This document shows positions 15,155 to 46,900 of a stretch of DNA of 64,000 nt, one piece after another. Where the stretch lies: IMG/VR virus record IMGVR_UViG_3300005837_000196, positions 65 to 64,064 of that record; one strand, written 5' to 3'. Made by a program: the position numbers and the translations under genes. Origin of the DNA: a virus. Lineage: Duplodnaviria; Caudoviricetes. Each line of letters starts with the position of its first letter. The first letter of the stretch is position 1. The notes below the pieces were generated by a model. The model did not search any database, was not told where the DNA came from, and saw nothing but the letters and a program-made list of their open reading frames with translations.

Positions 15155-15188
15155 TTACAGTGTAAACACGAACTATTTTGGATAATAT
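15155..15188 (+). promoter_or_regulatory. Early promoter motif copy 1 (TTACA-N5-AACACG-N9-GGATAATAT)
   Basis: Exact spacing conserved in 8 copies. Confidence 0.75.
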
Positions 15189-15233
15189 AGTTAGGCTTTG
15201 ACTGTATATTTTAAAAATATATATATTTTAGTT

Positions 15234-15267
15234 TTACAAAGTTAACACGAAGGAAAATGGATAATAT
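15234..15267 (+). promoter_or_regulatory. Early promoter motif copy 2
   Basis: TTACA aagtt AACACG aaggaaaat GGATAATAT; upstream of ORF 15292. Confidence 0.8.
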
Positions 15268-15291
15268 ATATGTAACAAAAAAATAATAAAA

Positions 15292-15525
15292 ATGAATTTA
15301 CAAACACATTTAAAAGAAGTAAGTAAACAAAATAAATTAATATTAAATAAACTAATAGAAGAAGAATTAAATAAAATATTTAAAACAGACTACTATGGAA
15401 CTAAAGAACAAATCTTTAATGAAAAAGTAATAATGGAAAATGTAATTGTAAAAGAAAATTGTGAAATGAAACACAATGAAAGTATAGAAGAATGGTATTT
15501 AAGAATCTATGATTTTACAAAGTAA
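15292..15525 (+). CDS. Early hypothetical protein
   Basis: 77 aa; follows promoter copy 2 with an A-rich leader. Confidence 0.6.
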   Translation: MNLQTHLKEVSKQNKLILNKLIEEELNKIFKTDYYGTKEQIFNEKVIMENVIVKENCEMKHNESIEEWYLRIYDFTK

Positions 15526-15548
15526 ACACGACCTCAACTGGATAATAT
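15515..15548 (+). promoter_or_regulatory. Early promoter motif copy 3
   Basis: TTACA aagta AACACG acctcaact GGATAATAT. Confidence 0.8.
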
Positions 15549-15572
15549 ATAAGAACATTAAAACATACACAC

Positions 15573-15695
15573 ATGAATGAAATAGCAAAAGAACTAAAAC
15601 TGATCGAAGAGTTTGAAGCAAACTTCAACCCAACTAAAGAATCTAAAGCAAGAAAAGAATATTTGCTTAATAAAATTAACTGGTCAACACTTTAA
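15573..15695 (+). CDS. Early micro-ORF (40 aa)
   Basis: MNEIAKELKLIEEF...; ACACAC leader after promoter 3. Confidence 0.55.
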   Translation: MNEIAKELKLIEEFEANFNPTKESKARKEYLLNKINWSTL

Positions 15696-15704
15696 CACAC
15701 ACAC

Positions 15705-15845
15705 ATGGAACTAACTAAAAGTGAACTAGACCTAATATACAATTGCCTACAAGATTGTGCTAACTCAGACAGCTGGGAACATTATGCCGATATAGTATGG
15801 GAATTATCAACCAAAGTTAAAGAAATAGCTAATAATATTAAGTAA
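15705..15845 (+). CDS. Early micro-ORF (46 aa)
   Basis: MELTKSELDLIYNCLQDC...; ACACACAC leader. Confidence 0.55.
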   Translation: MELTKSELDLIYNCLQDCANSDSWEHYADIVWELSTKVKEIANNIK

Positions 15846-15920
15846 AAGTTTGAAACACACTAACAGATGTAGCTTAAAACCATTCTAACATAAATCATTA
15901 ACAAATAAAACACACACCTT

Positions 15921-16097
15921 ATGAATACTGAATTACAAAAGAAATTGAACAGACAAAACAAAGCAACTGACAAGAAAATGGGTATGTATCGCCTTGGTTC
16001 TAAAGGTACAACGAGAATAACCTTTGCTAGAAATGCACACTGGAACCATATAGATACAACTAAAGTCTACTATGCTCACACAAAGCTGGAATGTTAA
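15921..16097 (+). CDS. Early micro-ORF (58 aa)
   Basis: MNTELQKKLNRQNK...; AAAACACACACC leader. Confidence 0.55.
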   Translation: MNTELQKKLNRQNKATDKKMGMYRLGSKGTTRITFARNAHWNHIDTTKVYYAHTKLEC

Positions 16098-16131
16098 TTA
16101 CAGCCTTAACACGATGCTAAATGGATAATAT
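16098..16131 (+). promoter_or_regulatory. Early promoter motif copy 4
   Basis: TTACA gcctt AACACG atgctaaat GGATAATAT. Confidence 0.8.
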
Positions 16132-16155
16132 AAACGAACAACAAACACAAACACA

Positions 16156-16323
16156 ATGAAAAATGTACAACTAACACAACAACAAATAGATAGAATGTAC
16201 TTTGATCTTAGAGACTATGTCAAATCACTGGCTGACGTTGATAGACTAACAGAGCTTAACATTGTACAACAACAAGAATTTGAAATAGAATTAGAATTAA
16301 TCAAAAAATTTAGTCAACTATGA
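16156..16323 (+). CDS. Early micro-ORF (55 aa)
   Basis: MKNVQLTQQQIDRMYF...; follows promoter 4. Confidence 0.55.
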   Translation: MKNVQLTQQQIDRMYFDLRDYVKSLADVDRLTELNIVQQQEFEIELELIKKFSQL

Positions 16324-16427
16324 TGAAACAATATTACTTAGAACAAATGCTAGCTAACACGAGCTACACTGAAGAAGAAATAAACGAAATGGATAACTGG
16401 GAAATTGAAATGCACTTAGGATTATGA
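16320..16427 (+). CDS. Early micro-ORF (35 aa, acidic)
   Basis: MMKQYYLEQMLANTSYTEEEINEMDNWEIEMHLGL; ATGA-coupled on both sides. Confidence 0.5.
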   Translation: MMKQYYLEQMLANTSYTEEEINEMDNWEIEMHLGL

Positions 16428-16564
16428 ATACATCACACACAAATTTAATGGACTGGGTTAACGCGCTTGACCTACCAACAGAAGAAAAAATAAATAGAAT
16501 ATACAAATACTATGATTGGCCACTGAGCTATGATGAAACAAAAGAATATTTAATACACAACTAA
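16424..16564 (+). CDS. Early micro-ORF (46 aa)
   Basis: MNTSHTNLMDWVNALDL...; ATGA overlap with the previous ORF. Confidence 0.5.
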   Translation: MNTSHTNLMDWVNALDLPTEEKINRIYKYYDWPLSYDETKEYLIHN

Positions 16565-16565
16565 T

Positions 16566-16739
16566 ATGATACCAAGACTACACGAAATAAATGGTAAACT
16601 AGATATGATACAAGATTTAAAACTACACGATTTAAACTTATCACTAGACCAACAAGAAAAGTTACTTGCTATACATCAGCAACTACTTGACAGACGATTT
16701 GAATTAATTAACCAAATGAAAAAAGATTATATATTATGA
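16566..16739 (+). CDS. Early micro-ORF (57 aa)
   Basis: MIPRLHEINGKLDMIQDL...; stop overlaps the ATG at 16736. Confidence 0.5.
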   Translation: MIPRLHEINGKLDMIQDLKLHDLNLSLDQQEKLLAIHQQLLDRRFELINQMKKDYIL

Positions 16740-16936
16740 ATATAACACAAGAACAAATGAACGCTAAGCTATTACAAATAGCACAGTTCGAAGAAAAGTA
16801 CGGTACTGATCATGGCCAAACAAGTGTATACGCTATGAAAAAATATTGTACCGATGCTAAATACAGAGAACGCGTCACAGCCTTCAACAAAGCAAGTATA
16901 AACACAATTAAACACTACAAACAATATGGATACTAA
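16736..16936 (+). CDS. Early hypothetical protein
   Basis: 66-aa ORF in a tightly coupled chain. Confidence 0.55.
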   Translation: MNITQEQMNAKLLQIAQFEEKYGTDHGQTSVYAMKKYCTDAKYRERVTAFNKASINTIKHYKQYGY

Positions 16937-17141
16937 AGAACAAACACTAAAAAAGATATTTGACAACGACCCAATGGGAATACTTGACGAACCATTTACA
17001 ACTAAAGATAAACTGTATATGCTAAAGCAAACAATTGATGACCTTGTTGAGATCGGACCAGACTACGCACATTTTATGAATGCACAAATAGCACACAAGA
17101 ATTTAAAAAAGATTAAGAAACTATTAGAATATATCGGATGA
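16926..17141 (+). CDS. Early hypothetical protein
   Basis: 71-aa ORF in a tightly coupled chain. Confidence 0.55.
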   Translation: MDTKEQTLKKIFDNDPMGILDEPFTTKDKLYMLKQTIDDLVEIGPDYAHFMNAQIAHKNLKKIKKLLEYIG

Positions 17142-17347
17142 ACACAACACCAGCAAAATACATAACAGTAATTGATTATTACAAAGGCAATGTAAACACA
17201 TACCCAATTGAATTATGGGATATGGAAAATAAAGATATAATTGAAATGCTTCTTGAATTAGGTCATATATCAGCTAATTGTAAATGGATAATACACAAAG
17301 ACAAACCTAAAACACACAAAAATTGCTATACACAATTACAAACCTAA
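17138..17347 (+). CDS. Early hypothetical protein
   Basis: 69-aa ORF, ATGA overlap. Confidence 0.55.
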   Translation: MNTTPAKYITVIDYYKGNVNTYPIELWDMENKDIIEMLLELGHISANCKWIIHKDKPKTHKNCYTQLQT

Positions 17348-17351
17348 CACG
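17323..17351 (+). repeat. 29-bp exact direct repeat, copy 1 (TTGCTATACACAATTACAAACCTAACACG)
   Basis: Identical to 17597-17625; includes the upstream half of the promoter motif. Confidence 0.9.
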
Positions 17352-17369
17352 TAACCAAACGGATAATAT
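17336..17369 (+). promoter_or_regulatory. Early promoter motif copy 5
   Basis: TTACA aacct AACACG taaccaaac GGATAATAT. Confidence 0.8.
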
Positions 17370-17394
17370 TAACGAATAACAAACAAACACAATT

Positions 17395-17595
17395 ATGAAA
17401 ACATTTGACAGATACAAACAAAACTTAAAACAAATTGGCAATGACATTATCTCTTATGATACACACGTTGCAGAAATTAAAGATGGTAAACTATACAGAT
17501 TAAACTGGTATGTGCCAGGCGTCGGCTCACACAGTGTAACAACTGCAAAGCACATTAACTATGTAGCACAAGAACTAAACCTTGAAATCGTATAA
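17395..17595 (+). CDS. Early hypothetical protein (conserved phage type)
   Basis: 66 aa, ISYDTHVAEI...SVTTAKHINY; flanked by the 29-bp direct repeats. Confidence 0.65.
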   Translation: MKTFDRYKQNLKQIGNDIISYDTHVAEIKDGKLYRLNWYVPGVGSHSVTTAKHINYVAQELNLEIV

Positions 17596-17596
17596 T

Positions 17597-17625
17597 TTGC
17601 TATACACAATTACAAACCTAACACG
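17597..17625 (+). repeat. 29-bp exact direct repeat, copy 2
   Basis: Identical to 17323-17351. Confidence 0.9.
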
Positions 17626-17643
17626 AGCGTTATTGGATAATAT
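17610..17643 (+). promoter_or_regulatory. Early promoter motif copy 6
   Basis: TTACA aacct AACACG agcgttatt GGATAATAT. Confidence 0.8.
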
Positions 17644-17666
17644 AAACGAATAATAAACAAACACAC

Positions 17667-17918
17667 ATGAAAAATTATTTTAAAACACCAATCACCAACA
17701 ATGAACAAGCTAAAAAGTATATTTGCAAACTTTATTTTGATGGCAACTTATACCACCTTGATGAAGATGCAAATGATATAATTAGCTTTAAAACAAACGA
17801 GCGTACTTTCACTGATGAAGAATGTGAACAACTTAACAAACGCCGTGATGAATGCTTTGAGCATATGACCATTGACCCTCATCAACTATGCTGCTCTTTA
17901 TGCGACCTTAAAACTTAA
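17667..17918 (+). CDS. Early hypothetical protein
   Basis: 83 aa; follows promoter 6. Confidence 0.6.
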   Translation: MKNYFKTPITNNEQAKKYICKLYFDGNLYHLDEDANDIISFKTNERTFTDEECEQLNKRRDECFEHMTIDPHQLCCSLCDLKT

Positions 17919-17934
17919 ATTTAATAACAAACAC

Positions 17935-18129
17935 ATGTATAACAAAAAATTAATATTAAACACAGCTGACAAAATCATTGAAGAAATTGATGAATACATT
18001 GACAATACAATACACTGGCAGCTTGACTCATCTGAATTTGGCCTAACTGAATTTGACGACCTATATCCACTTGAGTTACAAATCAAACAACAAATATTAT
18101 TTTCACTAATTAAAAAAGTAACAAAATGA
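17935..18129 (+). CDS. Early hypothetical protein (start corrected to MYNKK)
   Basis: ACAAACAC leader before the ATG at 17935. Confidence 0.55.
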   Translation: MYNKKLILNTADKIIEEIDEYIDNTIHWQLDSSEFGLTEFDDLYPLELQIKQQILFSLIKKVTK

Positions 18130-18473
18130 ACATGTACGAAAAACTAGCAACACTACTAGGTGTAGCGCAAATAACCGACGACTACAGAGGAACTCCTGAC
18201 CTTGAAATCAGTGAGTGGCATACAGCTGATAGCTATGACATTCACGTCATGACTAATGACTCTCGAAATATACAATTTGATTATGATGTATTTTATTATA
18301 CACCAAGCTTCAATCAAATTATTGATCGCATTAAAGAATTACAAGATGAAGACGCTACAGTGTATGTATCTGACTTTGAAACATATTTACCAGAGTATGA
18401 AGTAGATGATTATATTAACGAACACGAAGAAGATTTATTAGAACAATTAAATGTAGAAAATTATGACAACTAA
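18126..18473 (+). CDS. Early acidic hypothetical protein
   Basis: 115 aa, D/E-rich. Confidence 0.6.
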   Translation: MNMYEKLATLLGVAQITDDYRGTPDLEISEWHTADSYDIHVMTNDSRNIQFDYDVFYYTPSFNQIIDRIKELQDEDATVYVSDFETYLPEYEVDDYINEHEEDLLEQLNVENYDN

Positions 18474-18627
18474 AAAAGAAATGCCTTACGATTTTTGGAA
18501 CCACGGTATAAATCCTATACTAGGTTATAAATATGAAAGACCAGTAATGGTGGGTAAACACAAACGAGATAAGTTTGAATATGACCCTGAAGACGATTAC
18601 AAACCTAGCACGGAGGATAACGGATAA
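18463..18627 (+). CDS. Early micro-ORF (54 aa)
   Basis: MTTKKEMPYDFWNHGINPILGY...; ends inside promoter 7. Confidence 0.5.
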   Translation: MTTKKEMPYDFWNHGINPILGYKYERPVMVGKHKRDKFEYDPEDDYKPSTEDNG

Positions 18628-18630
18628 TAA
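18597..18630 (+). promoter_or_regulatory. Early promoter motif copy 7 (AGCACG variant)
   Basis: TTACA aacct AGCACG gaggataac GGATAATAA. Confidence 0.75.
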
Positions 18631-18662
18631 TAACGAACAACAAACAATTAAAATTAAATATT

Positions 18663-18893
18663 ATGAACACACAATTACAAAATTACTTAGACGTACAAAA
18701 CAAAGTACAACGCATTGAAAAATTAACCAATGCCGACTGGGATACAAGATACATGCTTGAAAAGTTTGTACCAACTGTATGGAATGACGGCTTTGATGTT
18801 GATGACATCATTGACTACCTAACAGTAAAGCTTCACGACGTAATCAATAGGCTTGAAGATGAAAAAGAAATAGTAACAACAAACACTAAATAA
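18663..18893 (+). CDS. Early hypothetical protein
   Basis: 76 aa; follows promoter 7. Confidence 0.6.
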   Translation: MNTQLQNYLDVQNKVQRIEKLTNADWDTRYMLEKFVPTVWNDGFDVDDIIDYLTVKLHDVINRLEDEKEIVTTNTK

Positions 18894-18894
18894 T

Positions 18895-19041
18895 ATGGCA
18901 GGTAATAAATTTGACACACAGTTTGCTATACACAAACCAAAGTTTTATAGCTTAACGTTCAAAGATCTATACAACGAAGAACGTATAATGACTGGTACAC
19001 CAAGTCAAGTTATAAACTACATACTAAACCAACAACTATAA
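18895..19041 (+). CDS. Early micro-ORF (48 aa)
   Basis: MAGNKFDTQFAIHKPKFYSL...; coupled to the previous ORF. Confidence 0.5.
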   Translation: MAGNKFDTQFAIHKPKFYSLTFKDLYNEERIMTGTPSQVINYILNQQL

Positions 19042-19049
19042 CAACAATA

Positions 19050-19290
19050 CTTTGTGTGTTTGTGAAGTTAAGTAGAGCAGCCATGAACAAATACCAGACA
19101 TTTTCTGGGGCGGCTTTGCTTAGCTAACAATATTAACGGCACCGAGGGATTGCTGACGAGCGATATATACTAGTTAGAAATACAGGTCATGATCTGTGCC
19201 CTCGGCTATTATAATAGCGGGTCAAAAAACCGGCGTACCGACGCGTAGGTAAATAAAACCGATCGGTGAGACCCGTTATCTTTTTTAACT
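19050..19290 (+). ncRNA. Candidate structured non-coding RNA/attenuator
   Basis: GC-rich intergenic island with several nested stems (19076-19115; 19142-19205; 19214-19279) followed by a T6 run. Confidence 0.5.
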
Positions 19291-19304
19291 TTAAATTAAA
19301 TACT

Positions 19305-19565
19305 ATGACAAATCCAATCGACGATCGAATTGAGGCAAAGCTAATATCTAAAATAGCACATTATAGATTAAGCGTACGCACTCAATTTAGAAACAGACAC
19401 CACACTACTTGGCCTGAACTATCTTATAAATTAGTCATGGGTGACGTTAGCAATCTAAGAGTATGGCTACGTATGGCCGAACTAATTGATGAAGCTAAAG
19501 CAGGTATAGACATCCCATCTGTAACACCATATACAACATATATGGCTAAAGAATTAACACAATGA
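19305..19565 (+). CDS. Hypothetical protein (start corrected to MTNPIDD)
   Basis: ATG after an A/T-rich leader, downstream of the structured region. Confidence 0.55.
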   Translation: MTNPIDDRIEAKLISKIAHYRLSVRTQFRNRHHTTWPELSYKLVMGDVSNLRVWLRMAELIDEAKAGIDIPSVTPYTTYMAKELTQ

Positions 19566-19693
19566 AAACAAAAATTCAAACAACAATAAATAATCAGTAT
19601 AGAGTTCTTTGGCAAAAAGATAAAATATTTGCTGGCTATAAAGACTTTAATACAGAAAAAGAAGCGTTAAACTATATTAAACAATTATCATGA
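19562..19693 (+). CDS. Micro-ORF (43 aa)
   Basis: MKTKIQTTINNQYRVLWQ...FNTEKEALNYI; ATGA-coupled. Confidence 0.5.
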   Translation: MKTKIQTTINNQYRVLWQKDKIFAGYKDFNTEKEALNYIKQLS

Positions 19694-19827
19694 TTATAGA
19701 CGTAAGATCAGAAAGCTCTGTATTTATAACTATAGGTACTGAAACATATTATATAGACAACTCAACTGGTGAACATTTAATGGAACACTGGCAAACCGAT
19801 CCTGAATATACTAAACCTTTATACTAA
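19690..19827 (+). CDS. Micro-ORF (45 aa)
   Basis: MIIDVRSESSVFITIG...YYIDNSTGE; coupled on both sides. Confidence 0.5.
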   Translation: MIIDVRSESSVFITIGTETYYIDNSTGEHLMEHWQTDPEYTKPLY

Positions 19828-20030
19828 TGACAAAACAAGAAATGCTACAATATATGCAAGACAAGAAAAAACGTAATGCAGAAAAATGGAAAAAAGAAAC
19901 TGCTATACACGGCCATTGTAAACCATTTACCGACGACGACTATCACAAAAATTCAGATATAATATTCAACGGTAAAAAATTACACAAAACAAAATTCACT
20001 CATAACTCAATATATAAATTTACAAGATAA
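19827..20030 (+). CDS. Hypothetical protein
   Basis: 67 aa, TAATG-coupled. Confidence 0.55.
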   Translation: MTKQEMLQYMQDKKKRNAEKWKKETAIHGHCKPFTDDDYHKNSDIIFNGKKLHKTKFTHNSIYKFTR

Positions 20031-20053
20031 ACACGAATAATTATGGATAATAC
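20020..20053 (+). promoter_or_regulatory. Early promoter motif copy 8
   Basis: TTACA agata AACACG aataattat GGATAATAC. Confidence 0.75.
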
Positions 20054-20849: not shown

Positions 20850-20867
20850 AAAACAAAGTAATATAAT

Positions 20868-21725: not shown

Positions 21726-22335
21726 TAGAAAACTCGATTATCTTACTCGAAGACGCATAGTATACCGGCGTAACCCTATAACTGACACCCCTTCTGTATC
21801 TTATGGCTGGGGTGATTTTTATGAGGAGGGTACGTATGAATGTTATGCGCTATTCAGAAGTAAAGCTAAAATAACAACATATAGGTCATTTAAATGGCAT
21901 CTATTAGTGTTGTGGTATTTAAATCCACAATTAACTTATGATGAAATTACAGACCTAACACGATACATAGCGGATAAAGATAATGGGTTTATAACAATAT
22001 CTCTTTCAGATGCAGCAATTAAAAACATAGTTAATGAAGTATTTGAAATGGATTTAGAAGAACCACCTAAGAATAAATTAAGAAAAATAATATTTAAAGA
22101 CCACTCAGGATTAACAACTTCACAGAAGTTAAGTATAGCTGGAACGCTTATAGGCCGAAAAAAATTAGCAGATGCTGATGATATATACGAAACAATGTTA
22201 TATCTTCACGAAGATGCTAAAAAAATAACTATAGCAAAGATAGCTCAGATTCTTAAAGTATCTACTCGAACGATATATAGGAATATAACAACTGAGATTA
22301 AACGGGAAAAAGTATTATTAAATGAAGAGATATAA
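21718..22335 (+). CDS. DNA-binding protein with C-terminal HTH (Rep/regulator-like)
   Basis: C-terminal KKITIAKIAQILKVSTRTIYRNI is a clear HTH; the helical middle resembles a primase C-terminal-like domain (inference). Confidence 0.65.
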   Translation: MSHRKLDYLTRRRIVYRRNPITDTPSVSYGWGDFYEEGTYECYALFRSKAKITTYRSFKWHLLVLWYLNPQLTYDEITDLTRYIADKDNGFITISLSDAAIKNIVNEVFEMDLEEPPKNKLRKIIFKDHSGLTTSQKLSIAGTLIGRKKLADADDIYETMLYLHEDAKKITIAKIAQILKVSTRTIYRNITTEIKREKVLLNEEI

Positions 22336-33392: not shown

Positions 33393-36300
33393 TTAATACT
33401 TGTTTAATTTTCTTTCTATTCTTCTTATTATTTTTGCAGGATCTTTTGATTTTTTTGTTTGTCTTTCTATCATGTTCAAATCCCATTCAGACCAACCTAA
33501 CGATAATGCTATACTTTGCCAAAGTTCTGTTTCAGACTCCATCGCGGTTTTAATATGATCTGCTTTTTGCACAATTCTATCAGCAGGTAAGTTTGTTCCC
33601 GCAGATATAACTTTACCAGCAGCTAAAAACGCAGGGTTTTCTAAACTAAATCCTTCAGTAAATACTTTTTCTCTAGATTGCTTATAAGTAAATACTTTAC
33701 CAGCTGATTCTAATTTTCTTAATTTAGAATTGATTGGTGGTGATAAAGAAGTTGCTTCAATAGCTATTTGAGTATAATCAGGTCTAGATTTTTTGGACTG
33801 CTCTATAATTTCTAATATTATATTTTTAACAGTAGCAGCAGCGGCTCCATATACACCAGAACCACGCATAAAAGTATCAAGACTACTGTTACCTATTCTA
33901 AACAATCTTGATTGTTCTTTTTCATCGTCTTCATCATCAAACAATAAAGCAAACAATCCTTGTTGTAAAGCAGAGAATATAATATTTTGTATTACACTAT
34001 AATAAGCAATCTTACTAATATTCGTTTTCCAATCTCCACGTCCATTAATTAAATCTAATGTAGCTTTTTTAGTTAAGCGAGCATATTGCATAGGTGTGTT
34101 ACCAAAAGCTAATATAAGGCGTCCTAATGATCCCGCTTGCTCCATTGAAATACGATCAGGTCTTGCGGACTGTTGTGTTTCTTCCGCAATCTCTTGAAAA
34201 TCTGTAAATGCTTTTCGTTCTGCTATTTTTTCTATTTCTTTTAATTCAGAATCAACTTTTCTTTTAATTTCTTTAGCAGGTATACGCTGTTTTAAATATT
34301 TATTTGTTCTATTGTCGTATTCTTCTTGTATGTATTTTTTTATTCTATTACGGTAGAACGTAGCTCCACCAGATGCAATTGCAAATGAATCAGCAATTTG
34401 TGTTGGTGTAAAACCAAACTTAAGTATTGCACTTAATGCAGCCCTTGCAGTGTTTTTAGCACCTTTAGCAGCTCTAGCAATTTCATCAGCATTTATATCA
34501 GTTTGTAAACCAGATCTTCTTTGCTTTAAAAAGTCTGAATTAAATAATGTTGAAAAGTCATTCCAATATTGTTTTTGATTAGCAAAAGCAATTCCAGCAT
34601 TAATAGGATTGTTATCACTAAAGTTGATAAAGTTAACAGCAGATAATGTTTGGAGCACAGCAGATCTAGCATTGAAGAACATAATAGCACCTACAGAATT
34701 ATTAGTCCAATCCATAAAGCGTTGCTCTATTTTACTTAAACCTTGTCTTCGGTTTTTACCAGTGTACATTCTTTCTAATATATTCTGCAAAGCATCTACA
34801 TATCTTTCGCCATATAATGCTCGAAGCTTCTCTATATTATTTTCATTAAATATTAAATCCGCTCTTTGTTTCCATTCGGTTAAAAATTCAGCACGTCTTG
34901 GTCCGTCTATATAAGATACAATGTCTGTTGTTATATCTCCTGAATCCCAATTTTTACCAGGCTTTGGATAACCTTCTGGATTTAAGCTTATTAGACGTTC
35001 AGCAAATGCTTTTAGTTCTTTATTAGCATTTACAATTTTTAAGTTCTTTTCAACTAGCTTAGGGCTTCTTTCTATTCCAGGAATATCATCACCTTGCTTA
35101 GTCCATATATAAATTCGAACAGCATCTTGATTTGTTAATCCTGTTTCATTTCTTTTATCTAAACCACCAGGAACATCTTTTTGTGCTTCTTTTTTAAGTG
35201 CTGTCCAGTCGCGTAACGCTTTTTGTTTTGAAGCTTCGTATTGTTGAATACCTCTAGAAAATGGTCTAAGTAAATTTTCTTTATACCATTCCATCTGCTG
35301 ATCACCTACTTTGCCTTTGCCTAAAGTAGCATATAATAAACCAACAAAGTCATCAGCTGAATAAGGTATGAATAATTTTTTGCCTTTACCTTTAGCTTTT
35401 AAACGTGCTTCAACAGGTGAAAATTTTTCTAAATAGCTTACTCCTGTAGTTTTTTGCAATATATCTTCTTCAAACTGGCGACTTAATGATTTAGAAAATT
35501 TTACGTCAGTTTCTTTTATTAAATTAACAAATTCTTTTTCATTTTTTATAGATACTTTATTTGTTTTTTCAACTTTAGGTATTCTATATTCAGCTATTAA
35601 ACGTACAGCAACTTCATTATTCTTATCTTTACTTAATTTAAGCCTAACTTCTATTTGTGCATTACCTTTTAATTCGGGAACTTTTAAATTTAATGGATTT
35701 ATTCCAAAATGATATATATCTTCGCCTATTAATATATAATCGCCCTTAAAACCATCTTTTGTTTTATTTATGTAATGTGTTTTTATAGCGTCAATTTGAA
35801 TAGGACTTTTAAAAGCAACAGTTTTTTGAAATCCTTCGTTTTTTAATTTTTCTTTTAATTCAAATGATATTTTATCTCTATTCTTTTTTATATTAGCTTT
35901 TTTAGTATAATTTAAAAGAGCCTTTTTAAAAGGAGAATAAAAATTTAAAAGACTTGCTATGTTTATAAAATCTTCACCTTTGTTTAATACTGAATTTAAA
36001 ACAACATCATTACCGATTATTTCAAATTTTAATTCTAACTGACCATATCTAGCGGAATAGTTCATTTTTGTTTCTATTCCTGTTTTTTTACCATGTATAA
36101 TAAGATGGTGATCTACCCTGCTTCCATCATCTCCAGCTATTTTATCATCAATTACATTTAAAATATTAGAATCTGATATTATAGCTTCTGATTTATTAAA
36201 AATTTGTAAATTTTCTTTTTCTATAGCATCACTTGCATTTTTTATATCTCTTTCAGATGCATCATTGAATAATTTATACAGTATAGGATATTTGTTTTGT

Positions 36301-39300
36301 AAAAAAGTGGAATCATTTTCTATAGCTAATCTTGATATTTCTTGATTAGATAAATTATATTCTTTTTTAGCTTGATCTAATAAACTTTTAGAAAACTTAA
36401 AATTTTCATTTCTATCTATTTGTTTAGATATTTCTAACATTAAATCATTAGGTAGTTCTTCACCTGTTATTTCTAATATATTTTTATATTTTTTAACTAC
36501 ATCTGGATTTTTTAAAACCTCCATAGTTGCGTCAAAAGCTATTTCTTCCGCTACAGCTTCAACAATAGCCGTTTTTCTAGTTCCTTGTGTAGATCTACCA
36601 ACATCAGAACCTAAAAAGTATTTTATAAATTCAGCTTTACTTATTTTCTTTTTAGTATATACTTTATTTCCTTCAGCTGTTTGTTCTCGCACGTGCTTAC
36701 CGTTTTTATCTAAAACAGGTTCTTGGAAATCTTTAAATCTTCTATTAATTAAAGACTGAGGAAGCTTATTATATATTGCTTCAAAATTATCACGCAGGAA
36801 AGACTCATACGCTTCTTGCTTGCCTGCAAACTTAGCCATAGGCTTTTTAAGCTCAGTTCTAAAACGCTTTTGTAGTTCTATTCTAAACTTAGGATCTTGA
36901 GGATTTGGTAAACGAGTACCGAATGTTTTTATTACAGCTTCTTTAACCGTGTTTATAAGCTCCTCAGGAAGTCCAATTTCTTTACGTAGACTTTTTATCT
37001 CATCAGCTATTTCAGCTTGTTCAGGAGCTTCTATTGTTTCTTCTGTAGTTGTATCAGTTACTCCTTTTGCTTCAGTTACATCTAATTTAAATTCTGTGTC
37101 TAATATACGATTAGCGGCTTCAATAGCTCTATTAGGCAATTGACCTTGTATATATGTATTTAGTGTAGCACCTTTAGATGGATCATAAGCGTTTATAAGG
37201 TCTAACAATCCACGTTTGGCTATTTCAATTTCACTCTGAAGTAATTCAAAATCAAAACCAGGTACATCTCTATATTTATTTGTTAAGCGTGTTGTTAATG
37301 GTTTATAAGCCTCTATAATTTCAAAAGCCCCATCTTTACCTTTTTCGTCAAATATTTTTTGAATATTTTCCCCGCTAATTTTAGATTCTTTTTTTTCTGA
37401 TGTTTTCTTTTCTGGATCACCTCCGGTAGCTACATTTAATTTTCTTTTGCTGTAAACGCTTTTTGTTAATTGATTAATAAAATTAAAAGCATTTTGAGCA
37501 TTATCTATTCTAAAATTATCAACTTCTTCGCTGCCTACAATTTTACTAAGAGCTTGTTTTATTTTATAAGCTAAATTGTTTAAAAAAGATTCATCAGACT
37601 TTTTTATTTCATTTGATGCGATTTGCTCACCTATAGCTGTAAGTAATTCTTCCGATTGATCTTTAGAGTTTTTATAAAGATTGTATTTAGCTAATACATT
37701 ATTATATTGTTGCTCAGTAAATTCACCGTTATCTTTTCTTGTTTTAAATTCTTTAAGAACTTCTTCTTTTATAGCATCAAACTCTTCTTGTTCAAATCCT
37801 TTTTTACTTATAATAGCGTGAGTATATTCATGTAAAACTACATGAGGATTGCTACCTAAAGAGTTTGTATTGATTGTAATTGTATTAGTATCTACATCCC
37901 ATAAAGCTTCTGTTCCTTTACCTAATTCTTTAAAATCTATTTTATTAAATGCTTTTGTTGTTTTATTATGTTGTTCAACTAATGCAATTTCTTTTTCAAC
38001 TATTAATAAATTTCTTTCTCTATCCCCCGTTACAAGTTCCTTATCTCCTTCTATTTTTTTGTATGGCTTTAATCTACCATCGCTGCTATTTAAAAGACTT
38101 TGTTTGTCAGACTGATAACCGTTTATTTTTTCTACAATTTCTTGTCTTAAACTTTCTTTGGTAGCTTCATCTATATTTTTAGAGCTAGCTATTTCAGACC
38201 ATCTTTCAATTTCTTTTCTACTTAGTCTATCATACTCAAAAACTTCTTGTTGCTGTTCTCCATTAAGCCTTAAAAATCTAGCAGAGCTTATATCTTGATC
38301 GTCTTTTAAATCTTTTATTTCATTGTTTATTTCTTTTTGAAGCGCTCTTTTTTCTTGTGGTGTTAGATTTTTATTAGTAAGCTGTGCGGCAAGACTATTT
38401 ATTTTATCTACTCTTTTTTTAATAATAGATTTATCTGATTTGGTAGCAATAACATCCCTAACAGCTGCTTGAGCTACTACCCCCACATTTATTGTTTTAA
38501 ACCCATTTCCTATTAAAGCTCCTTGAGCTGCTGCTTCGCTAACACCATCAAGATAACTTTTTGTTTTGTCACCAAATATATGAATATCAGCTATATTTTG
38601 AGTTAAAGTGGTTAATCCTTCTGAAGCAGATTCCATACCTACCCCTGCCGGGTATGCCGCAACACTTTTAACTAATGCTTTTTTAAATCCGTTTTTAGCT
38701 ATTAATTCACTAACGTTTGAAATATCACGAATTGCTCTTATAGTAGGTATTTCAAAAACAAACTCAGCTGTACCATAAAGAGCAGCCGTACCTAATCTAG
38801 TTAAATCGCTAACGTTTAAATAGTTGTATTGTAAATCTAATTGCTTTTGTAATTGATTTTTTGTTTTTAAATCTTTTTCGTTTTTAATAGCCTCTTCTAA
38901 AGCAGGAATACTTTTTATAGCCTTACGCTTGCCAAGAGCAAAATCTGACATTTTACTTCCAAAACCACTAGCAAAAAACAAGGGCATTGCAGCAGCTCCT
39001 GTTGAAGCCATTAATCCTGACGGTATAAAATTAACTAACCCATCAGCCGCCCAAGTTCCAAAAGTATTCCAATCACTAATTGATTCTACTTCTATAGGTT
39101 TAGCTAAATCTTGCTCAGCTTCTTCCGCAAGTTCTTCCCTATAATCAATTAAATCATTTGTGTATGATTTTTTTCTGCCTTCTTCGGATTTAAGTATATC
39201 CAATGCTGCCATTGGTCCTACTGCTAAATCAACCGCTAATGTTTTAAACCTATTTTCTAATAAAGTTATTTTACTATAATCTCTTTTAAAATCGTCTAAA

Positions 39301-40076
39301 ATATTAAGAGTATTTTTATCATTTAAATTTTTAGAAAGTTTTTGTAAGTTTTGATGAGTTATTTTTAAATCTTCTATTTTATCTTTTAAATTTAAAACAT
39401 CCTCTTTGCTATAGTTTTTATTTAAATTAAAAGAATCTATGCTTTGTTGTATTTGATTACTTTCATTATTAAAGTTAGCAAGATCTATATTGTATTTTTC
39501 TAACTCTTCATTATATAAATTAGATTTTCTATTATATAAACTTTGTCTTTTATATGAAGGCAAATCTGCTAAAAAAGCTGTTCTTTTAGCCTGTTGTTTT
39601 TTGTTTATTTCTTCATTAGATAAAACTTCAGAAGTTTCAAATAATTTACCGTTTGAATTTTTCCAATAATCAAATTCGTCTTTTTCTTCAAGCTTAAATT
39701 TACCTTGTTGAAAACGTTTTAATTTAGATTCTTTTTTATTTTTATTTTCTTTTTCTACATTAATATTACCAACCTCAATATAATTATTTTCAATTTCATC
39801 TAATTCTTTATCTGATATTGGATCAAGAATAAATTCAGTTTGAGCGGATGTACCTGTTTTAACTGTTTCTGGTAATTCCAAAGAAATATCTACCGATTGT
39901 GATTCCGTAGGAGTTAATTCGGGTGCTGCAATTTCCTCCACAACCGCACCCGGTGTCGTGGGAGATGTCTTTCCCGGCTCTTTAGTTTTAACAGCCTTAG
40001 GATTATCTTTTTGAAATTGATCTACAATATTATCTGGAATATTGTAAGTTTCCTCATTTAATTTAAATATAGGCAT
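33393..40076 (-). CDS. Giant internal virion/ejection (polyvalent-like) protein
   Basis: 2227 aa, helical; HEYTH zincin motif (37818-37832), sigma region-2-like segment (about 37110-37330), PD-(D/E)XK-like segment (about 36060-36120); position after two smaller putative ejection genes. Confidence 0.75.
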   Translation of the reverse strand: MPIFKLNEETYNIPDNIVDQFQKDNPKAVKTKEPGKTSPTTPGAVVEEIAAPELTPTESQSVDISLELPETVKTGTSAQTEFILDPISDKELDEIENNYIEVGNINVEKENKNKKESKLKRFQQGKFKLEEKDEFDYWKNSNGKLFETSEVLSNEEINKKQQAKRTAFLADLPSYKRQSLYNRKSNLYNEELEKYNIDLANFNNESNQIQQSIDSFNLNKNYSKEDVLNLKDKIEDLKITHQNLQKLSKNLNDKNTLNILDDFKRDYSKITLLENRFKTLAVDLAVGPMAALDILKSEEGRKKSYTNDLIDYREELAEEAEQDLAKPIEVESISDWNTFGTWAADGLVNFIPSGLMASTGAAAMPLFFASGFGSKMSDFALGKRKAIKSIPALEEAIKNEKDLKTKNQLQKQLDLQYNYLNVSDLTRLGTAALYGTAEFVFEIPTIRAIRDISNVSELIAKNGFKKALVKSVAAYPAGVGMESASEGLTTLTQNIADIHIFGDKTKSYLDGVSEAAAQGALIGNGFKTINVGVVAQAAVRDVIATKSDKSIIKKRVDKINSLAAQLTNKNLTPQEKRALQKEINNEIKDLKDDQDISSARFLRLNGEQQQEVFEYDRLSRKEIERWSEIASSKNIDEATKESLRQEIVEKINGYQSDKQSLLNSSDGRLKPYKKIEGDKELVTGDRERNLLIVEKEIALVEQHNKTTKAFNKIDFKELGKGTEALWDVDTNTITINTNSLGSNPHVVLHEYTHAIISKKGFEQEEFDAIKEEVLKEFKTRKDNGEFTEQQYNNVLAKYNLYKNSKDQSEELLTAIGEQIASNEIKKSDESFLNNLAYKIKQALSKIVGSEEVDNFRIDNAQNAFNFINQLTKSVYSKRKLNVATGGDPEKKTSEKKESKISGENIQKIFDEKGKDGAFEIIEAYKPLTTRLTNKYRDVPGFDFELLQSEIEIAKRGLLDLINAYDPSKGATLNTYIQGQLPNRAIEAANRILDTEFKLDVTEAKGVTDTTTEETIEAPEQAEIADEIKSLRKEIGLPEELINTVKEAVIKTFGTRLPNPQDPKFRIELQKRFRTELKKPMAKFAGKQEAYESFLRDNFEAIYNKLPQSLINRRFKDFQEPVLDKNGKHVREQTAEGNKVYTKKKISKAEFIKYFLGSDVGRSTQGTRKTAIVEAVAEEIAFDATMEVLKNPDVVKKYKNILEITGEELPNDLMLEISKQIDRNENFKFSKSLLDQAKKEYNLSNQEISRLAIENDSTFLQNKYPILYKLFNDASERDIKNASDAIEKENLQIFNKSEAIISDSNILNVIDDKIAGDDGSRVDHHLIIHGKKTGIETKMNYSARYGQLELKFEIIGNDVVLNSVLNKGEDFINIASLLNFYSPFKKALLNYTKKANIKKNRDKISFELKEKLKNEGFQKTVAFKSPIQIDAIKTHYINKTKDGFKGDYILIGEDIYHFGINPLNLKVPELKGNAQIEVRLKLSKDKNNEVAVRLIAEYRIPKVEKTNKVSIKNEKEFVNLIKETDVKFSKSLSRQFEEDILQKTTGVSYLEKFSPVEARLKAKGKGKKLFIPYSADDFVGLLYATLGKGKVGDQQMEWYKENLLRPFSRGIQQYEASKQKALRDWTALKKEAQKDVPGGLDKRNETGLTNQDAVRIYIWTKQGDDIPGIERSPKLVEKNLKIVNANKELKAFAERLISLNPEGYPKPGKNWDSGDITTDIVSYIDGPRRAEFLTEWKQRADLIFNENNIEKLRALYGERYVDALQNILERMYTGKNRRQGLSKIEQRFMDWTNNSVGAIMFFNARSAVLQTLSAVNFINFSDNNPINAGIAFANQKQYWNDFSTLFNSDFLKQRRSGLQTDINADEIARAAKGAKNTARAALSAILKFGFTPTQIADSFAIASGGATFYRNRIKKYIQEEYDNRTNKYLKQRIPAKEIKRKVDSELKEIEKIAERKAFTDFQEIAEETQQSARPDRISMEQAGSLGRLILAFGNTPMQYARLTKKATLDLINGRGDWKTNISKIAYYSVIQNIIFSALQQGLFALLFDDEDDEKEQSRLFRIGNSSLDTFMRGSGVYGAAAATVKNIILEIIEQSKKSRPDYTQIAIEATSLSPPINSKLRKLESAGKVFTYKQSREKVFTEGFSLENPAFLAAGKVISAGTNLPADRIVQKADHIKTAMESETELWQSIALSLGWSEWDLNMIERQTKKSKDPAKIIRRIERKLNKY

Positions 40077-41581
40077 TATTGAGTTATTTTATATTGTGAA
40101 TAATCAGTTTTAGAAGTAGTATCTGTTCCTATATTAAGATTATTAATAATCTCTTTCATTTGAGAATTAGTTAATCTTTTTGCAGCTGATAACTTTCTAT
40201 TATAAGCAGATAAAAGGCCATTTATATCATTGACTGGTTGGCCATTAATAATTATTAAAGCATTACCATATTTTTTATTATAAAAGCTTTCAGCTTCTTT
40301 TCTTGAATATTTAAGAGTCGGATCTTCCATCAAGCTTTCAATTAAAGTTTCTTTTGTTGCACCAGGATCTGCAATTTCAGAATCTCCAAATATAGGTTCG
40401 TCTTTTACAATATTAACAATAGCCTGCGTAGTTAGTGGTTTTGAAGTTTTCTTTATTTCTTCAATTTTTTCTTCTTTTTCTTTTTTATTTAGTTTTTCAT
40501 CTGCCCCTATGATAGCTATTTCTTTAGCTTGTTGTGATGTTGTTGCTGAAAGAGAAGCAGGTAATTTATCATACACACTTTGAAGCATGTTGGCCGCATC
40601 TCCATAATAATCAGTTTCAGTTTTTCCAGCATTTTTAATTTTAAGCTTTCTATCGTATTCCGCTTTATTAGAAAGAAATGTAGATTCATAAGCTCCTTTA
40701 ATTGTTGTTTTTATAAGATCTCTTAAATCTGCTTTATCTTTAATATTATCAATTCTTCCATCTTCATCAAAATCTTCTTTTGCTCTTTCTATAAGAGGTA
40801 TATTATTAGGGTTAATTTTTTTTGGATCATCATACCCAATATGGTCTATTAAAACGCTTAATGCGTCTAAATCAGATAATTTTACCGCATCTAAACCATT
40901 ATTTAAATTATCCATATAAAATTGTCTGCTTGATCCATCTGATCCAAATTTTATAGCCGTTTTATTTGCAACGTCTAATAATTCTAAATATTTATCTGAT
41001 CTTTTATTTATATATTTTTTATTTATTACATCACTCCAATTCGATGTACCTTTTCCGTCTTTAAAATCAAATTTAAAATCATCTGTTATTTCAAATTCCC
41101 CTCTTATCATTTTCCCAACATGGTCACTTAACTCCGGAGCATTTATTTTACTTATATCGTCTGGAGTAACATCTGCTATATCAGCAACATAAGCATTATA
41201 ATCATTAGACATTCCTTTTATCATAGATATTTCTCTTTCAGCAGCTACAGCAATTTCAGCTTGTTGAACCGGATTATTTGAAGCTTTTATTGCATCAATT
41301 GCTTTTTGTCTTACTTTTTTAGCAGCTTTCATTACAACGGGTCTAAATTCAGCAGCAACACCTGAAGGATCAATATTACCTAAAACATTTATCGCTTGAG
41401 CTGTGTTATCTTCTTGACGAATTTGTTCTTTGCGGGCGCGAACTTCTGCTCTTTCGCGTCTAGCTCTTTGCTCTGCAAATATTTTTTCGCCTTTTTGCAC
41501 AGCTGGTTCTAATGCTCCTGCAACATCTGCGGGTCTACCTAAACCTAGTGCTTGTCCAATTAATCTTGTATCTAATGCCAT
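40076..41581 (-). CDS. Putative ejection/internal virion protein
   Basis: 501 aa, helical and charged, N-terminal coiled coil; position in the podovirus ejectosome cluster. Confidence 0.6.
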   Translation of the reverse strand: MALDTRLIGQALGLGRPADVAGALEPAVQKGEKIFAEQRARRERAEVRARKEQIRQEDNTAQAINVLGNIDPSGVAAEFRPVVMKAAKKVRQKAIDAIKASNNPVQQAEIAVAAEREISMIKGMSNDYNAYVADIADVTPDDISKINAPELSDHVGKMIRGEFEITDDFKFDFKDGKGTSNWSDVINKKYINKRSDKYLELLDVANKTAIKFGSDGSSRQFYMDNLNNGLDAVKLSDLDALSVLIDHIGYDDPKKINPNNIPLIERAKEDFDEDGRIDNIKDKADLRDLIKTTIKGAYESTFLSNKAEYDRKLKIKNAGKTETDYYGDAANMLQSVYDKLPASLSATTSQQAKEIAIIGADEKLNKKEKEEKIEEIKKTSKPLTTQAIVNIVKDEPIFGDSEIADPGATKETLIESLMEDPTLKYSRKEAESFYNKKYGNALIIINGQPVNDINGLLSAYNRKLSAAKRLTNSQMKEIINNLNIGTDTTSKTDYSQYKITQ

Positions 41582-43900: not shown

Positions 43901-46900
43901 TTAAGGTTGATTTATTGTTATGGTAAAATCAGGATCACCAATTGTTTTGTTTTGATTTACAACTGTTATAACTGGATCTGCTTTTCTAACCTTTAATGAT
44001 ATTGTTTTAGTTCCAGCATTAAAACTACCAAGTGCTGATTGCACTATTTTTATACTTGTATCACCCGCTCCTGTTATTGTTACTACATCACCTAAGACGG
44101 TAGCTACGGAACTATTAGCTATTGTATATTTAAATACCCCTGAGCTATCTGAAGATGGATTTAATACAAAGTTTGCATCCCCGTATGTTTTAACTATATC
44201 ATCAATATTTATTGTAGGATCAACAGGAGGTGCACAAACCTCAATATTTTTTATTTTATCAGGAGCGTTTTGGCTTTCTCTAATAGTTGTTATAAGTAAA
44301 TTTGTACCAAATAATTTAAAAGTATTTTCTGAATTAGGTAAATTAAATTTTCTTGAAAAACCTAAAATACTATCATGCATTAAATAATCTCCTATTTTAG
44401 GAGTTGTTCTAAGCGGATCTGATGTATATAAAAGCCCTCTTGTTTTATATCCTTTTATAACTTCTACATTACAATTACCTGGTTGTAAATAAACAACTTG
44501 AAAACCAATATATCCACTGCCACTAGTTTGAGTTTTTAAGTCAAGTTCAATTCTACCAATTTGTTTTGATGGATTTGAATTTATATTAGCTAAAGTATTT
44601 AAAGTAAGTTCTGTTTTTTTATTGTTCACCTCTACTTGACCCGTAACAGTTACACTATCTCCATTTATATCAGTATATGTGCCTGCAGTGGCTGCTGTTA
44701 ATTCGCTATCCTTTAAATCTATAGTATGTCCTGTGGAAGTAAATATTTTTCTAAAATGTTTTGTGTTTGTTCTATCAATTGTAAACTTTTTTTGGAATAA
44801 AAAGTTTTGATTTGCGTTATTACTTAATGTACCCTGCAAAGTAGATGTTGTAAAGTCTTCGTCAGATTTATCGGTTAGTTCATATAATATACTAAAGTCT
44901 GAAACAACAACAGTAGTTTGTATAATTTCTTTTTTAGGCCTAACACTTATTGTTTTTGATGCAGATGGTAAATTAAATGGTTTAGTTATAAAACCTACTT
45001 TTAATAAGTTGTTATCTAATATAAGTTCTATTCTATCATCTAAAGCATATGTTGATGTAACTATATCTGATCCATCTGTTATTTCAAAATCACTAGCATT
45101 TATAGTTGGTATAAATTCTTTGCCAGATGAAGGTGTTAAAGTAAATAAATATTGTTTTTCTGCATTTGCTAATAAATTAGCAGGCCCAGTTATAGTATAA
45201 TTTGCTGAATCTGTATAATTTGAAGTAGTAGCTCCCCCTAAAATAGTTTTATTATATTCTACTGTTAATGTAACATCTTTATTTATTATATTATCTAACA
45301 TTAATACAGCCTTATTATCAACACTTATATTATCTATTTCAACTTCGCCTGTTATTGTAACTTTATAATGTTGAATACTATACACCATTTTTAAATTACT
45401 AATTTTAACAGAGTCAGTTGTGTTTTCAAAAATAAAATCAGATTGCGTCGGCTGTCTTAGTATAGTGTGATTTACATTACTTAAAGTTATTTCTTGTGTA
45501 AATGTATTTACGATTCTTCCACCAGTAAATCCTTGTATTTTATTTTTATTACTTATAATAGATCCAAATTGAGAAAACAAAGTAAGCGTTTTAGCGGAAG
45601 TTACCGGTCTTAATATAGACACTGATGAGGTTCCTATGTTTGAAGATAACTCAGCGCCATTGCCTGGTAGTATTTCAATTTCAAATGTTTCTTCAGTATC
45701 TGCAAAAGGAAAATCTATATCAATTTCATATATTCCATTTGTTCCTAATTCTAAATTTGTTTGTCTATCTATTTCAGAAGTAGTATTTGTAAGCTTATAT
45801 GTAAATTTTGCATTTGGGTCACCAGATATAACTAATTTTTTTTCTGTATTAAAAAATGTAACATTTGATTTGTCTATTGAAATAGAAGATATTTTCTTTT
45901 TTACAACAGGCAATTCTTTAGCTATAACTTTAATTTCATAATCTATATCTGTATTAGTTACGTTTGGTACAACTATTTTTTCTGTTATAGTTATACTACC
46001 ATTATTATTTATTTTTTTATCTAATAATATAAGACTATTGTTAACAGTTATATAATCAGGTTCTAATTTCCAGCCATTATCTGGTGTAATTGTTCTTGAT
46101 TTAATTGTTTCTAAAACATTAGGATTGCTAGATATAGAATATGAATCATTATTAACAGATGACGTAACATTTTCTAATTTAACAGTATAGTTTCCTGATA
46201 TAGATATATTTTTTTGTTCTGCAAAATTAATTTTACATAGCTCAATAACTTTAGCAGTATTTCTTGTAGGTTGTGTTTTTATACCATGGGTATAGGCTAA
46301 TTTAACATTATTGCCATCTTGTGTAGCAACAACATTAGTCAAATTAAAATTACTAGCTTTTAGCTCATATCCGTTTTTAGGAAATATTGTAATACTTACT
46401 GTTGAATTTAATTTTGTGCCCGGAGCTTCATTAACAGTAATTATATTAGAAGTATATTTTTCTGTTTCTTGTGGAGACAACTCAAATGTTAAATTTGTAT
46501 TTGATACAGCAGCAACTGATGAAATACTTACTGAATTGCTTATACCTTGAAAATTAAAGTTTTTAGCATCAATGTTATCTATATCTTTTTTTTCACCATT
46601 TACAAAAGCAAAATATTTATTTTCTTTTTCTTTAAAAGATATTGTATCAGATTTTTGTTGATCAGTAATAACTTTGGCTGTCCAATTAGTTGTTCCTTCA
46701 TAACCTAAAGTTTTGTAACTTTTAATCATTGAAGGATCATTGTTTATTTCAAGCTCAATTGTTGACTTGTATTGTGAACCGTAAAAATTATTATAGGGCA
46801 CATTGTTTACATCATGCTCCCACAATTCTCCGTTATTGTATGAATAATAAGTATTATTCATTGATATTGCAAACTCAGGTATAAATGACTTTCTAGTTGG

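Follow-up and report, generated by a model that had tools for sequence, protein, structure and literature searches.

A giant protein of 2227 residues, encoded by a tailed phage (Duplodnaviria; Caudoviricetes) represented by the IMG/VR record IMGVR_UViG_3300005837_000196, very probably contains a true homologue of domain 2 (sigma2) of the sigma-70 factors, as a remote member of that family. The DNA analyzed here, hereafter the window, is a stretch of 64,000 nucleotides (positions 65 to 64,064 of the record) that makes up nearly the entire 64,064-bp virus record, which has a G+C content of 33% and is rated complete by CheckV. The sigma-like domain is found together with a free sigma factor gene and a set of phage-specific promoters. 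We tentatively propose that it is delivered with the virion and directs the RNA polymerase (RNAP) of the host to these promoters at the very start of infection.

A sigma-70 domain-2-like domain within a giant phage protein

The resemblance had been pointed out in an earlier note on this DNA, in which a string of 74 residues was aligned by eye with sigma-70 regions 2.1-2.4. The string occurs exactly in the translation of the 2227-residue open reading frame (ORF), at residues 917-990 (37107-37328, minus strand), close to the positions given in that note (916-989, 37110-37330), and the resemblance was borne out by NCBIfam, hhalign, AlphaFold, Foldseek and VIA-align. As a single sequence, residues 880-1100 retrieved the SigB/F/G, FliA/WhiG and SigI families as the best three in NCBIfam, with E-values of 0.008-0.02, and all matches fall on the N-terminal, region 2 part of the sigma models. 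Sigma families also lead the tally when 19 relatives are scanned singly (FliA in 6/19, SigBFG in 6/19 and SigK in 5/19; best E-value 1e-3). These matches (E-values from 1e-3 to 2e-2) score far below the curated cut-offs and miss every curated family threshold. Comparison by hhalign of a family alignment of 251 sequences with 13 reference sigma factors, all taken from one Clostridium genome, gave an E-value of 7.9e-5 over 68 columns with 32% consensus identity, in the register of sigma regions 2.1-2.3; the reversed control gave an E-value of 0.57. Pfam and PHROGs yielded nothing useful on the whole protein or on the region, and the Pfam models of sigma regions 3 and 4 have no match in the region.

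The earlier note had suggested comparing an AlphaFold model of the region with sigma2, and this comparison reveals a sigma2 fold that includes the region 1.2 helix. The AlphaFold2 model of residues 860-1120, built with a 78-sequence alignment, consists of a five-helix domain (residues 902-991, at a predicted local distance difference test score, pLDDT, of about 90) followed by a disordered acidic linker. The top 49 Foldseek matches in the PDB are all sigma factors, the E-values being weak owing to the two domains and the disordered stretches of the model. When VIA-align was applied to the Foldseek matches, sigma70 of Escherichia coli (6ca0_F) superimposed with a Z-score of 10.1 and a root-mean-square deviation (rmsd) of 2.7 A over 89 residues, pairing positions 40-132 of the model with sigma70 109-446 and spanning the non-conserved insert that separates region 1.2 from regions 2.1-2.4. 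Independently of Foldseek, a VIA-align search of 48,161 representative PDB chains placed sigma chains or sigma-derived scaffolds at each of ranks 1-31 (Z 9.3-5.6, with 30 sigma rows at Z of at least 6.0), among them SigB, RpoS, sigma32, pro-sigmaK, sigma28, several ECF factors and T4 gp55 (7d7d_F; Z 8.2, rmsd 2.9 A, 90 residues); the best unrelated chain, at rank 32, has a Z-score of 5.6 as well. The similarity is remote, with 15-26% identity to sigma chains, and it is on sequence profiles and fold together that we base our confidence in the homology.

Relatives of the region are numerous. A word-indexed search gave 278 giant proteins, and 436 matches at E-values up to 1e-3 were obtained when 1.84 billion representatives were searched exhaustively with a profile; among the matches listed (150 of 436), all are giant proteins or fragments thereof, from metagenomes. 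A tblastn search with the 2227-residue protein against 50,697 phage records returned no match. Together with the C-terminal domain, the sigma-like domain is the best-conserved part of the giant protein.

Early promoters in a genome without a visible RNA polymerase

The remark that the giant protein shows no RNAP catalytic motif, made in the earlier note, is confirmed by the absence of D-x-D-x-D from its sequence. The protein has no polymerase domain match in Pfam, PHROGs or the PDB, and no phage RNAP was found in the genome. The DFDED motif of the upstream 501-residue gene (40076-41581, minus strand), which has the pattern of the catalytic motif of crAss virion RNAPs, was rejected because it is not conserved among relatives (DFEDNG, DFETDG and DENPD are found instead); the positional analogue of this gene in Cellulophaga phage phi38:1, gp100, is annotated as structural. 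The large ORFs of the two arms that could be assigned encode a chaperonin, fibres, primase/helicase, ThyA and ribonucleotide reductase, those of 596 and 303 residues being without assignment.

The genome does encode a free sigma factor, as the earlier note had it, and a six-frame search of the genome with PF04542 (Sigma70_r2) found this gene only. Its product has thousands of close relatives, many of them named as members of the sigma-70 family. The embedded domain is not a recent copy of it, since BLASTP found nothing between the two, and an hhalign comparison of their shallow alignments was limited to the helix of region 2.4, at an E-value of 0.074.

A phage-specific early promoter motif is equally real, with a count slightly different from the eight promoters announced in the earlier note: the tripartite sequence TTACA-AACACG-GGATAAT was found here in seven exact and two variant copies (Table 1). 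They are confined to the plus strand (15155 to 21978), mostly 25-35 nt upstream of a start codon. The minus-strand genes end at 14887, and the early arm opens with the motif promoters at 15155 and 15234, followed by the first ORF at 15292; 7 kb inside this arm, preceded by the copy at about 21947, lies the gene of the free sigma factor. With 97 occurrences versus 106 expected, the Bacteroidota -7 box, TAnnTTTG, shows no enrichment, and host-type Bacteroidota promoters of the form TTTG-N17-21-TAnnTTTG occur at chance level genome-wide. One TAnnTTTG box (TATGTTTG) lies in the divergent control region, on the plus strand at 15129-15136, some 20 nt ahead of the first motif promoter. On the minus arm, no second, late promoter motif could be defined by eye. 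Given that no phage RNAP was found, that the early arm opens with motif promoters, that the free sigma gene lies well inside this arm and that the -7 box is not enriched, the first round of early transcription would seem to call for a factor made beforehand.

The three elements also travel together. The embedded domain, the free sigma factor and seven motif copies on the early strand are each found in this genome and in two relatives, G002 and G003, and all four further near-complete relatives that carry the domain (4/4) have 5-8 motif copies, on one strand. Taken together, the combination is counted in 7/7 near-complete genomes. A scan of genome contigs with the free sigma factor returned one contig of a metagenome-assembled genome, which served solely to supply the 13 reference sigma factors. 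In the three cultured relatives Maribacter phage Panino, Cellulophaga phage phi38:1 and MW202828, neither the promoter pattern nor PF04542 nor the profiles of the region and of the free sigma factor gave a match, and no cultured model carrying the sigma-like domain was found. This consistent pattern across relatives indicates that embedded domain, free sigma factor and motif constitute a single clade-specific transcription system. In G002 (the genome of L012; 63,908 bp), one copy of the promoter motif falls inside a direct terminal repeat (20-50 and 63837-63867), and the early arm starts at the contig end, which may mark the physical end of the genome or be an effect of assembly.

Architecture and probable location of the giant protein

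A conservation map based on 46 full-length relatives, complemented by alignments of 20 and 40 sequences, divides the giant protein into a variable N-terminus, a glycine-rich/hydrophobic and coiled-coil module, a zincin, the sigma-like block (residues 900-1215), a variable cassette and a conserved C-terminus (Table 1). The gene lies downstream of one for a muzzle-like protein and is the last large one in the structural operon; the N-terminal module of its product has hydrophobic segments at residues 277-295 and 350-368 and coiled-coil matches in the PDB. By hhalign, the family profile matches residues 315-699 of phi38:1 gp101 (probability 97.9%, E-value 5.7e-13, 322 columns). This gp101 is the giant protein that occupies the corresponding position in phi38:1, and its annotation as a 'structural protein' derives from its similarity to phi18:1 gp101. 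Structural labels of this gp101 type reportedly stem from virion proteomics by Holmfeldt and colleagues in 2013. The position of the gene at the close of the structural operon, the homology of the N-terminal module to gp101 and a zincin that fits the class of polyvalent proteins lead us to consider the protein as probably virion-borne.

The HEYTH motif that the earlier note had placed next to the sigma-like domain was confirmed at residues 749-753 (37818-37832). A likely third zinc ligand, E810 (37647-37649), follows the HExxH motif after 57 residues, and the alignments of 20 and 40 sequences show little or no variation at H749, E750, H753 and E810. Pfam gave weak metallopeptidase matches (Peptidase_M90, DUF6782) in two of 20 relatives. 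The nearest named ESM-Atlas clusters carry LPD23, LPD1 and ART-PolyVal in the case of the peptidase region, which we treat only as a lead, and LPD39 or LPD38 in the case of the C-terminal domain, a weak lead; the Pfam polyvalent models (MPTase-PolyVal and the LPD families) have no match in the 2227-residue protein or in the 20 relatives. The cassette region shows a HAD-like DxDxT consensus (FDFDDT...) in distant relatives, and one relative has Zeta_toxin/AAA_33 kinase matches, whose location within that protein is unmapped; this points to swappable effector modules among relatives. Taken as a whole, the protein looks like a phage polyvalent ejection protein.

Short KFSKS-like motifs bracket a fragment of about 330 residues that comprises the sigma-like domain and the 190-residue domain following it. 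A [KQ]FSK motif is found at the same alignment position as motif 2 in 16/46 full-length relatives (strict pattern) and as motif 3 in 17/46. At the first border, [FLMIV]S[KR] is present in 127/234 relatives, mostly 8-10 residues before the VQxIY helix, and the strict form [KQR]FS[KR] in 45/234. These motifs are candidate processing sites that might free the fragment.

The features of an ejection protein could also be read in another way. The sigma-like domain might be a docking device that tethers the ejected complex and the entering DNA end to the host RNAP, so that transcription starts at the entering end and helps pull the genome in; the choice of promoters would be left to other factors or to other parts of the protein complex. 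In T7, the host RNAP does help pull the genome into the cell. The hydrophobic and coiled-coil N-terminal module and the giant size of the protein would suit such a device, and the motif promoter within the terminal repeat of G002 would put the early arm at the genome end. Terminal repeats in IMG/VR, however, often reflect circular assembly instead of physical ends, the polarity of entry is without direct evidence, and the idea overlaps so much with that of an injected specificity factor that the two are hard to separate by sequence. We regard it as quite improbable.

Table 1. Coordinates (window numbering) of the features discussed in the text
Feature	Position	Strand	Remarks
Gene of the 2227-residue giant protein (P0001)	33393..40076	-	ORF list and translation; >430 representative relatives
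N-terminal glycine-rich/hydrophobic and coiled-coil module	38082..39170	-	residues ~303-665; common to phi38:1 gp101
Zincin-like metallopeptidase region	37497..37979	-	residues ~700-860; conserved HExxH...E
Degenerate motif copy KESKIS	37376..37393	-	residues 896-901; directly before first helix of sigma-like domain
Sigma-70 domain-2-like domain	37095..37382	-	residues ~899-994; regions 1.2 and 2.1-2.4; sequence profiles and fold
Acidic linker	36990..37094	-	residues 995-1029; net charge -9; predicted disordered (pLDDT <50); starts with conserved F..DVTEAKG
Conserved helical domain with small beta element, 190 residues	36432..36989	-	residues ~1030-1215
KFSKSL motif 2	36381..36398	-	residues 1227-1232; border of sigma-like block and variable cassette
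Variable cassette	35502..36380	-	residues 1233-1525; poorly conserved; other modules in other relatives
KFSKSL motif 3	35484..35501	-	residues 1526-1531; border of cassette and C-terminal domain
Highly conserved C-terminal domain	33396..35483	-	residues 1532-2227; many invariant polar residues; one hydrophobic helix (residues 2028-2046)
Free phage sigma factor gene, 247 residues	22322..23065	+	PF04542 26 bits (above cut-off); PF08281 13.6 bits
TTACA-N5-AACACG-N9-GGATAAT, seven exact copies	15155, 15234, 15515, 16098, 17336, 17610, 20020 (15155..20051)	+	0 expected; early arm
TTACA-AACACG-GGATAAT, variant copies	~18597, ~21947	+	early arm

Proposed role of the sigma-like domain

In a sigma factor, domain 2 is the portion that binds the beta-prime clamp helices of core RNAP and deals with the -10 element. 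In the mechanism that we propose as the most economical one, the virion would carry the giant protein and eject it along with the DNA. The sigma-like block (residues ~900-1227: sigma2-like domain, acidic linker and 190-residue domain) would engage the host core RNAP upon entry, as part of the intact protein or once freed by cleavage at the KFSKS-like borders, for which the neighbouring HExxH zincin or the head protease would be responsible. It would thus act as a ready-made specificity or recruitment factor for the TTACA-AACACG-GGATAAT promoters before any free sigma factor has been made, and the latter, expressed from the early arm, would then amplify or extend the programme. Packaging, cleavage, core binding and promoter reading are all steps that we infer. 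Binding of the domain to host core RNAP seems to us rather likely. That it serves as the promoter-selecting factor of early transcription is possible, with our judgement leaning slightly to the other side, and we hold the complete mechanism in the same tentative regard. The most novel version of this idea, in which a marine, probably Flavobacteriia-infecting podophage clade injects a sigma-like module cut from a polyvalent protein and captures core RNAP for its tripartite promoters, leaving later work to the free sigma factor, is a shade more doubtful still. The injected sigma module advanced in the earlier note keeps its main ingredients, that is, the domain, the lack of an RNAP, the zincin, the promoters and the free sigma factor; it is weakened in that the module has a sigma2-like domain only and has not conserved the tryptophans of region 2.3.

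The residues kept by the family run parallel to the region 2.2-2.4 signature. Its consensus, G..G(I/L)LDLI..Y.P..G..L..YI...L..RAIEA..R, conserves region 2.2 at its glycines and its hydrophobic positions, has the turn (Y/F)-D/x-P..G and shows an RAIEA..R helix in place of region 2.4. Y975 is conserved, at the position of sigma70 Y430, and the region 2.4-like residues R983, E986 and R990 are nearly invariant. A three-residue insertion with GKRG breaks the helix of region 2.2. The 190-residue domain beyond the acidic linker is confidently modelled by AlphaFold2 (pLDDT 90.7, predicted TM-score 0.83) and is without match in the PDB, the best Foldseek E-value being 0.27 (TM <0.2) and the best Z-score in the wide VIA-align search 5.1; it thus provides no evidence for a sigma3 or sigma4 domain. 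Several winged-helix DNA-binding domains occur among its low-scoring VIA-align rows. The module is closer to sigma2-only factors, T4 gp55 for example, than to a complete sigma factor.

This pattern of residues and domains leaves room for a purely negative role, in which the injected domain is a sigma competitor that docks on the beta-prime clamp helices to displace or exclude host sigma factors and shut off host transcription immediately upon entry, making no promoter choice of its own; the phage promoters would then be read by the free sigma factor or by a host sigma factor. It would explain why the core-docking sigma domain alone is present, with no sigma3 or sigma4, and why the region 2.2-like signature is kept when the region 2.3 tryptophans used for melting are not, and polyvalent proteins typically bear effectors for host takeover (PMC5512222). 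Yet the few copies carried by a virion would face thousands of RNAP molecules, R983, E986 and R990 would be superfluous in a plain blocker, and the strict co-occurrence with a phage-specific promoter set suggests a positive role. We consider a competitor of this kind unlikely.

About as unlikely, in our view, is that the domain has no role at entry, either because the protein stays out of the cytoplasm or because the sigma2 fold has been reused as a scaffold or protein-protein module without RNAP binding, for instance in assembly or in late gene control in the producing cell. The remoteness of the similarity (15-26% identity, no Pfam match) and the loss of key melting residues agree with such reuse, and cultured relatives with the same virion architecture manage without the domain. 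Nonetheless, the domain is among the best-conserved stretches of a fast-evolving protein, with more than 400 representative sequences, its conservation tracks the sigma signature positions, and its co-occurrence with the free sigma factor and the promoter set points to transcription.

Several observations weigh against the injected specificity factor and must be set beside those in its favour. At the level of sequence, Pfam Sigma70_r2 (PF04542) does not match the domain at E-values up to 10, and phmmer or HMMER searches of PDB sequences with the family profile retrieve no sigma chain better than an E-value of 0.57, the other matches being coiled coils. The W433/W434 pair of sigma70 region 2.3 is replaced by G-Q in the window and by K-F in the family consensus. 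Many alternative sigma factors likewise lack this pair. No sigma3 or sigma4 was detected after the sigma-like domain by Pfam, Foldseek or VIA-align, which leaves recognition of a -35-type element unexplained, and the first border motif is degenerate (KESKIS) in the protein of the window itself. Packaging is argued from synteny and from the homology of a region that is in part coiled coil, in a clade without a cultured member. Finally, the free sigma factor could itself read the motif, an initial round of transcription having started from an unrecognized host-type promoter (compare the box at 15129-15136).

Genome organization and probable host

The minus-strand arm of the genome encodes a tail fibre, a GroES-like protein, the large terminase, the portal, capsid-type virion proteins and a muzzle-like protein of 2300 residues; the gene of the latter is followed by four smaller genes and then by the 2227-residue ORF. 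The plus-strand arm (about 15.2-32.4 kb) comprises many small ORFs, the sigma factor gene and genes for primase/helicase, ThyA and ribonucleotide reductase. The ORFs scanned include no visible DNA polymerase. In its capsid protein, the phage shows 41-54% identity to Flavobacterium elemo phages, Maribacter phage Panino and Cellulophaga phage phi38:1 (Pervagoviridae), and a host within the Flavobacteriia is therefore likely, to judge from this sequence identity.

The 2300-residue protein (43901-50803, minus strand) carries the crAss muzzle C-terminal domain PF25729 (E-value 8.5e-10) and, at its C-terminal end, a weak hyaluronate-lyase-like match; PF25729 occurs here in a 64-kb phage with capsid genes of the Pervagoviridae/elemo type. 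A GroEL homologue (9255-10808; PHROG E-value 8.5e-137) and the GroES-like protein beside the terminase gene (60990-61589) are encoded on the minus strand. So are two ORFs of 596 and 303 residues (12054-13844 and 11188-12099), which have no PHROG match.

Comparison with known systems

Phage sigma factors, virion RNAPs and polyvalent proteins are each already known. A phage that is to transcribe its genes at time zero may rely on the host holoenzyme and host-like promoters, may inject an RNAP, as N4-like, crAss-like and phiKZ-like phages do, or may inject an enzyme that modifies the host RNAP, as T4 does with Alt. No earlier description of a sigma domain as part of a virion or polyvalent protein was found in the literature searched. 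The word 'sigma' is absent from the text of the study in which polyvalent proteins were described (Iyer et al. 2017, PMC5512222), and the 2021 survey of jumbo phages by the same group describes sigma factors as free phage genes only. If our proposal is right, injection of a sigma-like module would constitute a third strategy for early transcription independent of host sigma factors, beside virion RNAPs and enzymatic modification of RNAP. It would be a cheaper route, as the phage brings the specificity subunit only and borrows the catalytic core of the host. A transcription-factor module would join the contents known from polyvalent proteins, and the firing of the first genes in a phage without its own RNAP or visible host-type promoters would be explained. 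The strategy would, moreover, be ecologically widespread, the family counting more than 430 representatives at 50% clustering and being common in marine metagenomes.

The domain has the fold of the sigma2 domains of the sigma-70 family (Z 9.3-10.1 and rmsd 2.6-2.7 A, with 86-89 residues aligned) and their signature in regions 2.1-2.3; among them, the group 3 factors (SigB/F/G, FliA, SigK) are especially close, and it is to these families that its weak hidden Markov model matches go. It is, however, embedded in a protein of 2227 residues, whereas sigma2 otherwise makes up the N-terminal half of a free factor of 20-70 kDa. T4 gp55 is likewise a phage protein with little beyond a sigma2-like domain, and it directs the host core RNAP to a -10-type element. 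Whereas gp55 is a free protein made during infection that works with gp33 and the sliding clamp gp45, the domain described here, with which it has 9% identity, belongs to a protein that is probably part of the virion, and its action would fall at time zero.

With the polyvalent proteins (Iyer et al. 2017, PMC5512222) the giant protein has in common a very large size, a multidomain build, a location among virion genes, a zincin hub and swappable effectors, the zincin peptidase being the hub of these proteins in that work. The same study proposes that the HExxH zincin peptidases always fused to the N4 virion RNAP process the protein into units, and it presents T4 Alt as a packaged ADP-ribosyltransferase that is delivered by the virion and retargets the host RNAP to phage early promoters (PMC5512222). 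Alt acts as an enzyme and the RNAP keeps the host sigma70, whereas the phage of the window would deliver a stoichiometric sigma-like binder. A parallel in genome position is offered by the virion RNAPs of N4-like (Schitoviridae) and crAss-like phages. These are also giant proteins encoded where the structural module ends, and their presumed packaging and ejection would allow early genes with phage-specific promoters to be transcribed before new proteins are synthesized; with the crAss-like phages, the present genome further shares a crAss-type muzzle domain in an upstream gene. Unlike these phages, it shows no polymerase domain or motif in the proteins examined, and it would borrow the catalytic core of its host and supply the sigma-like part alone.

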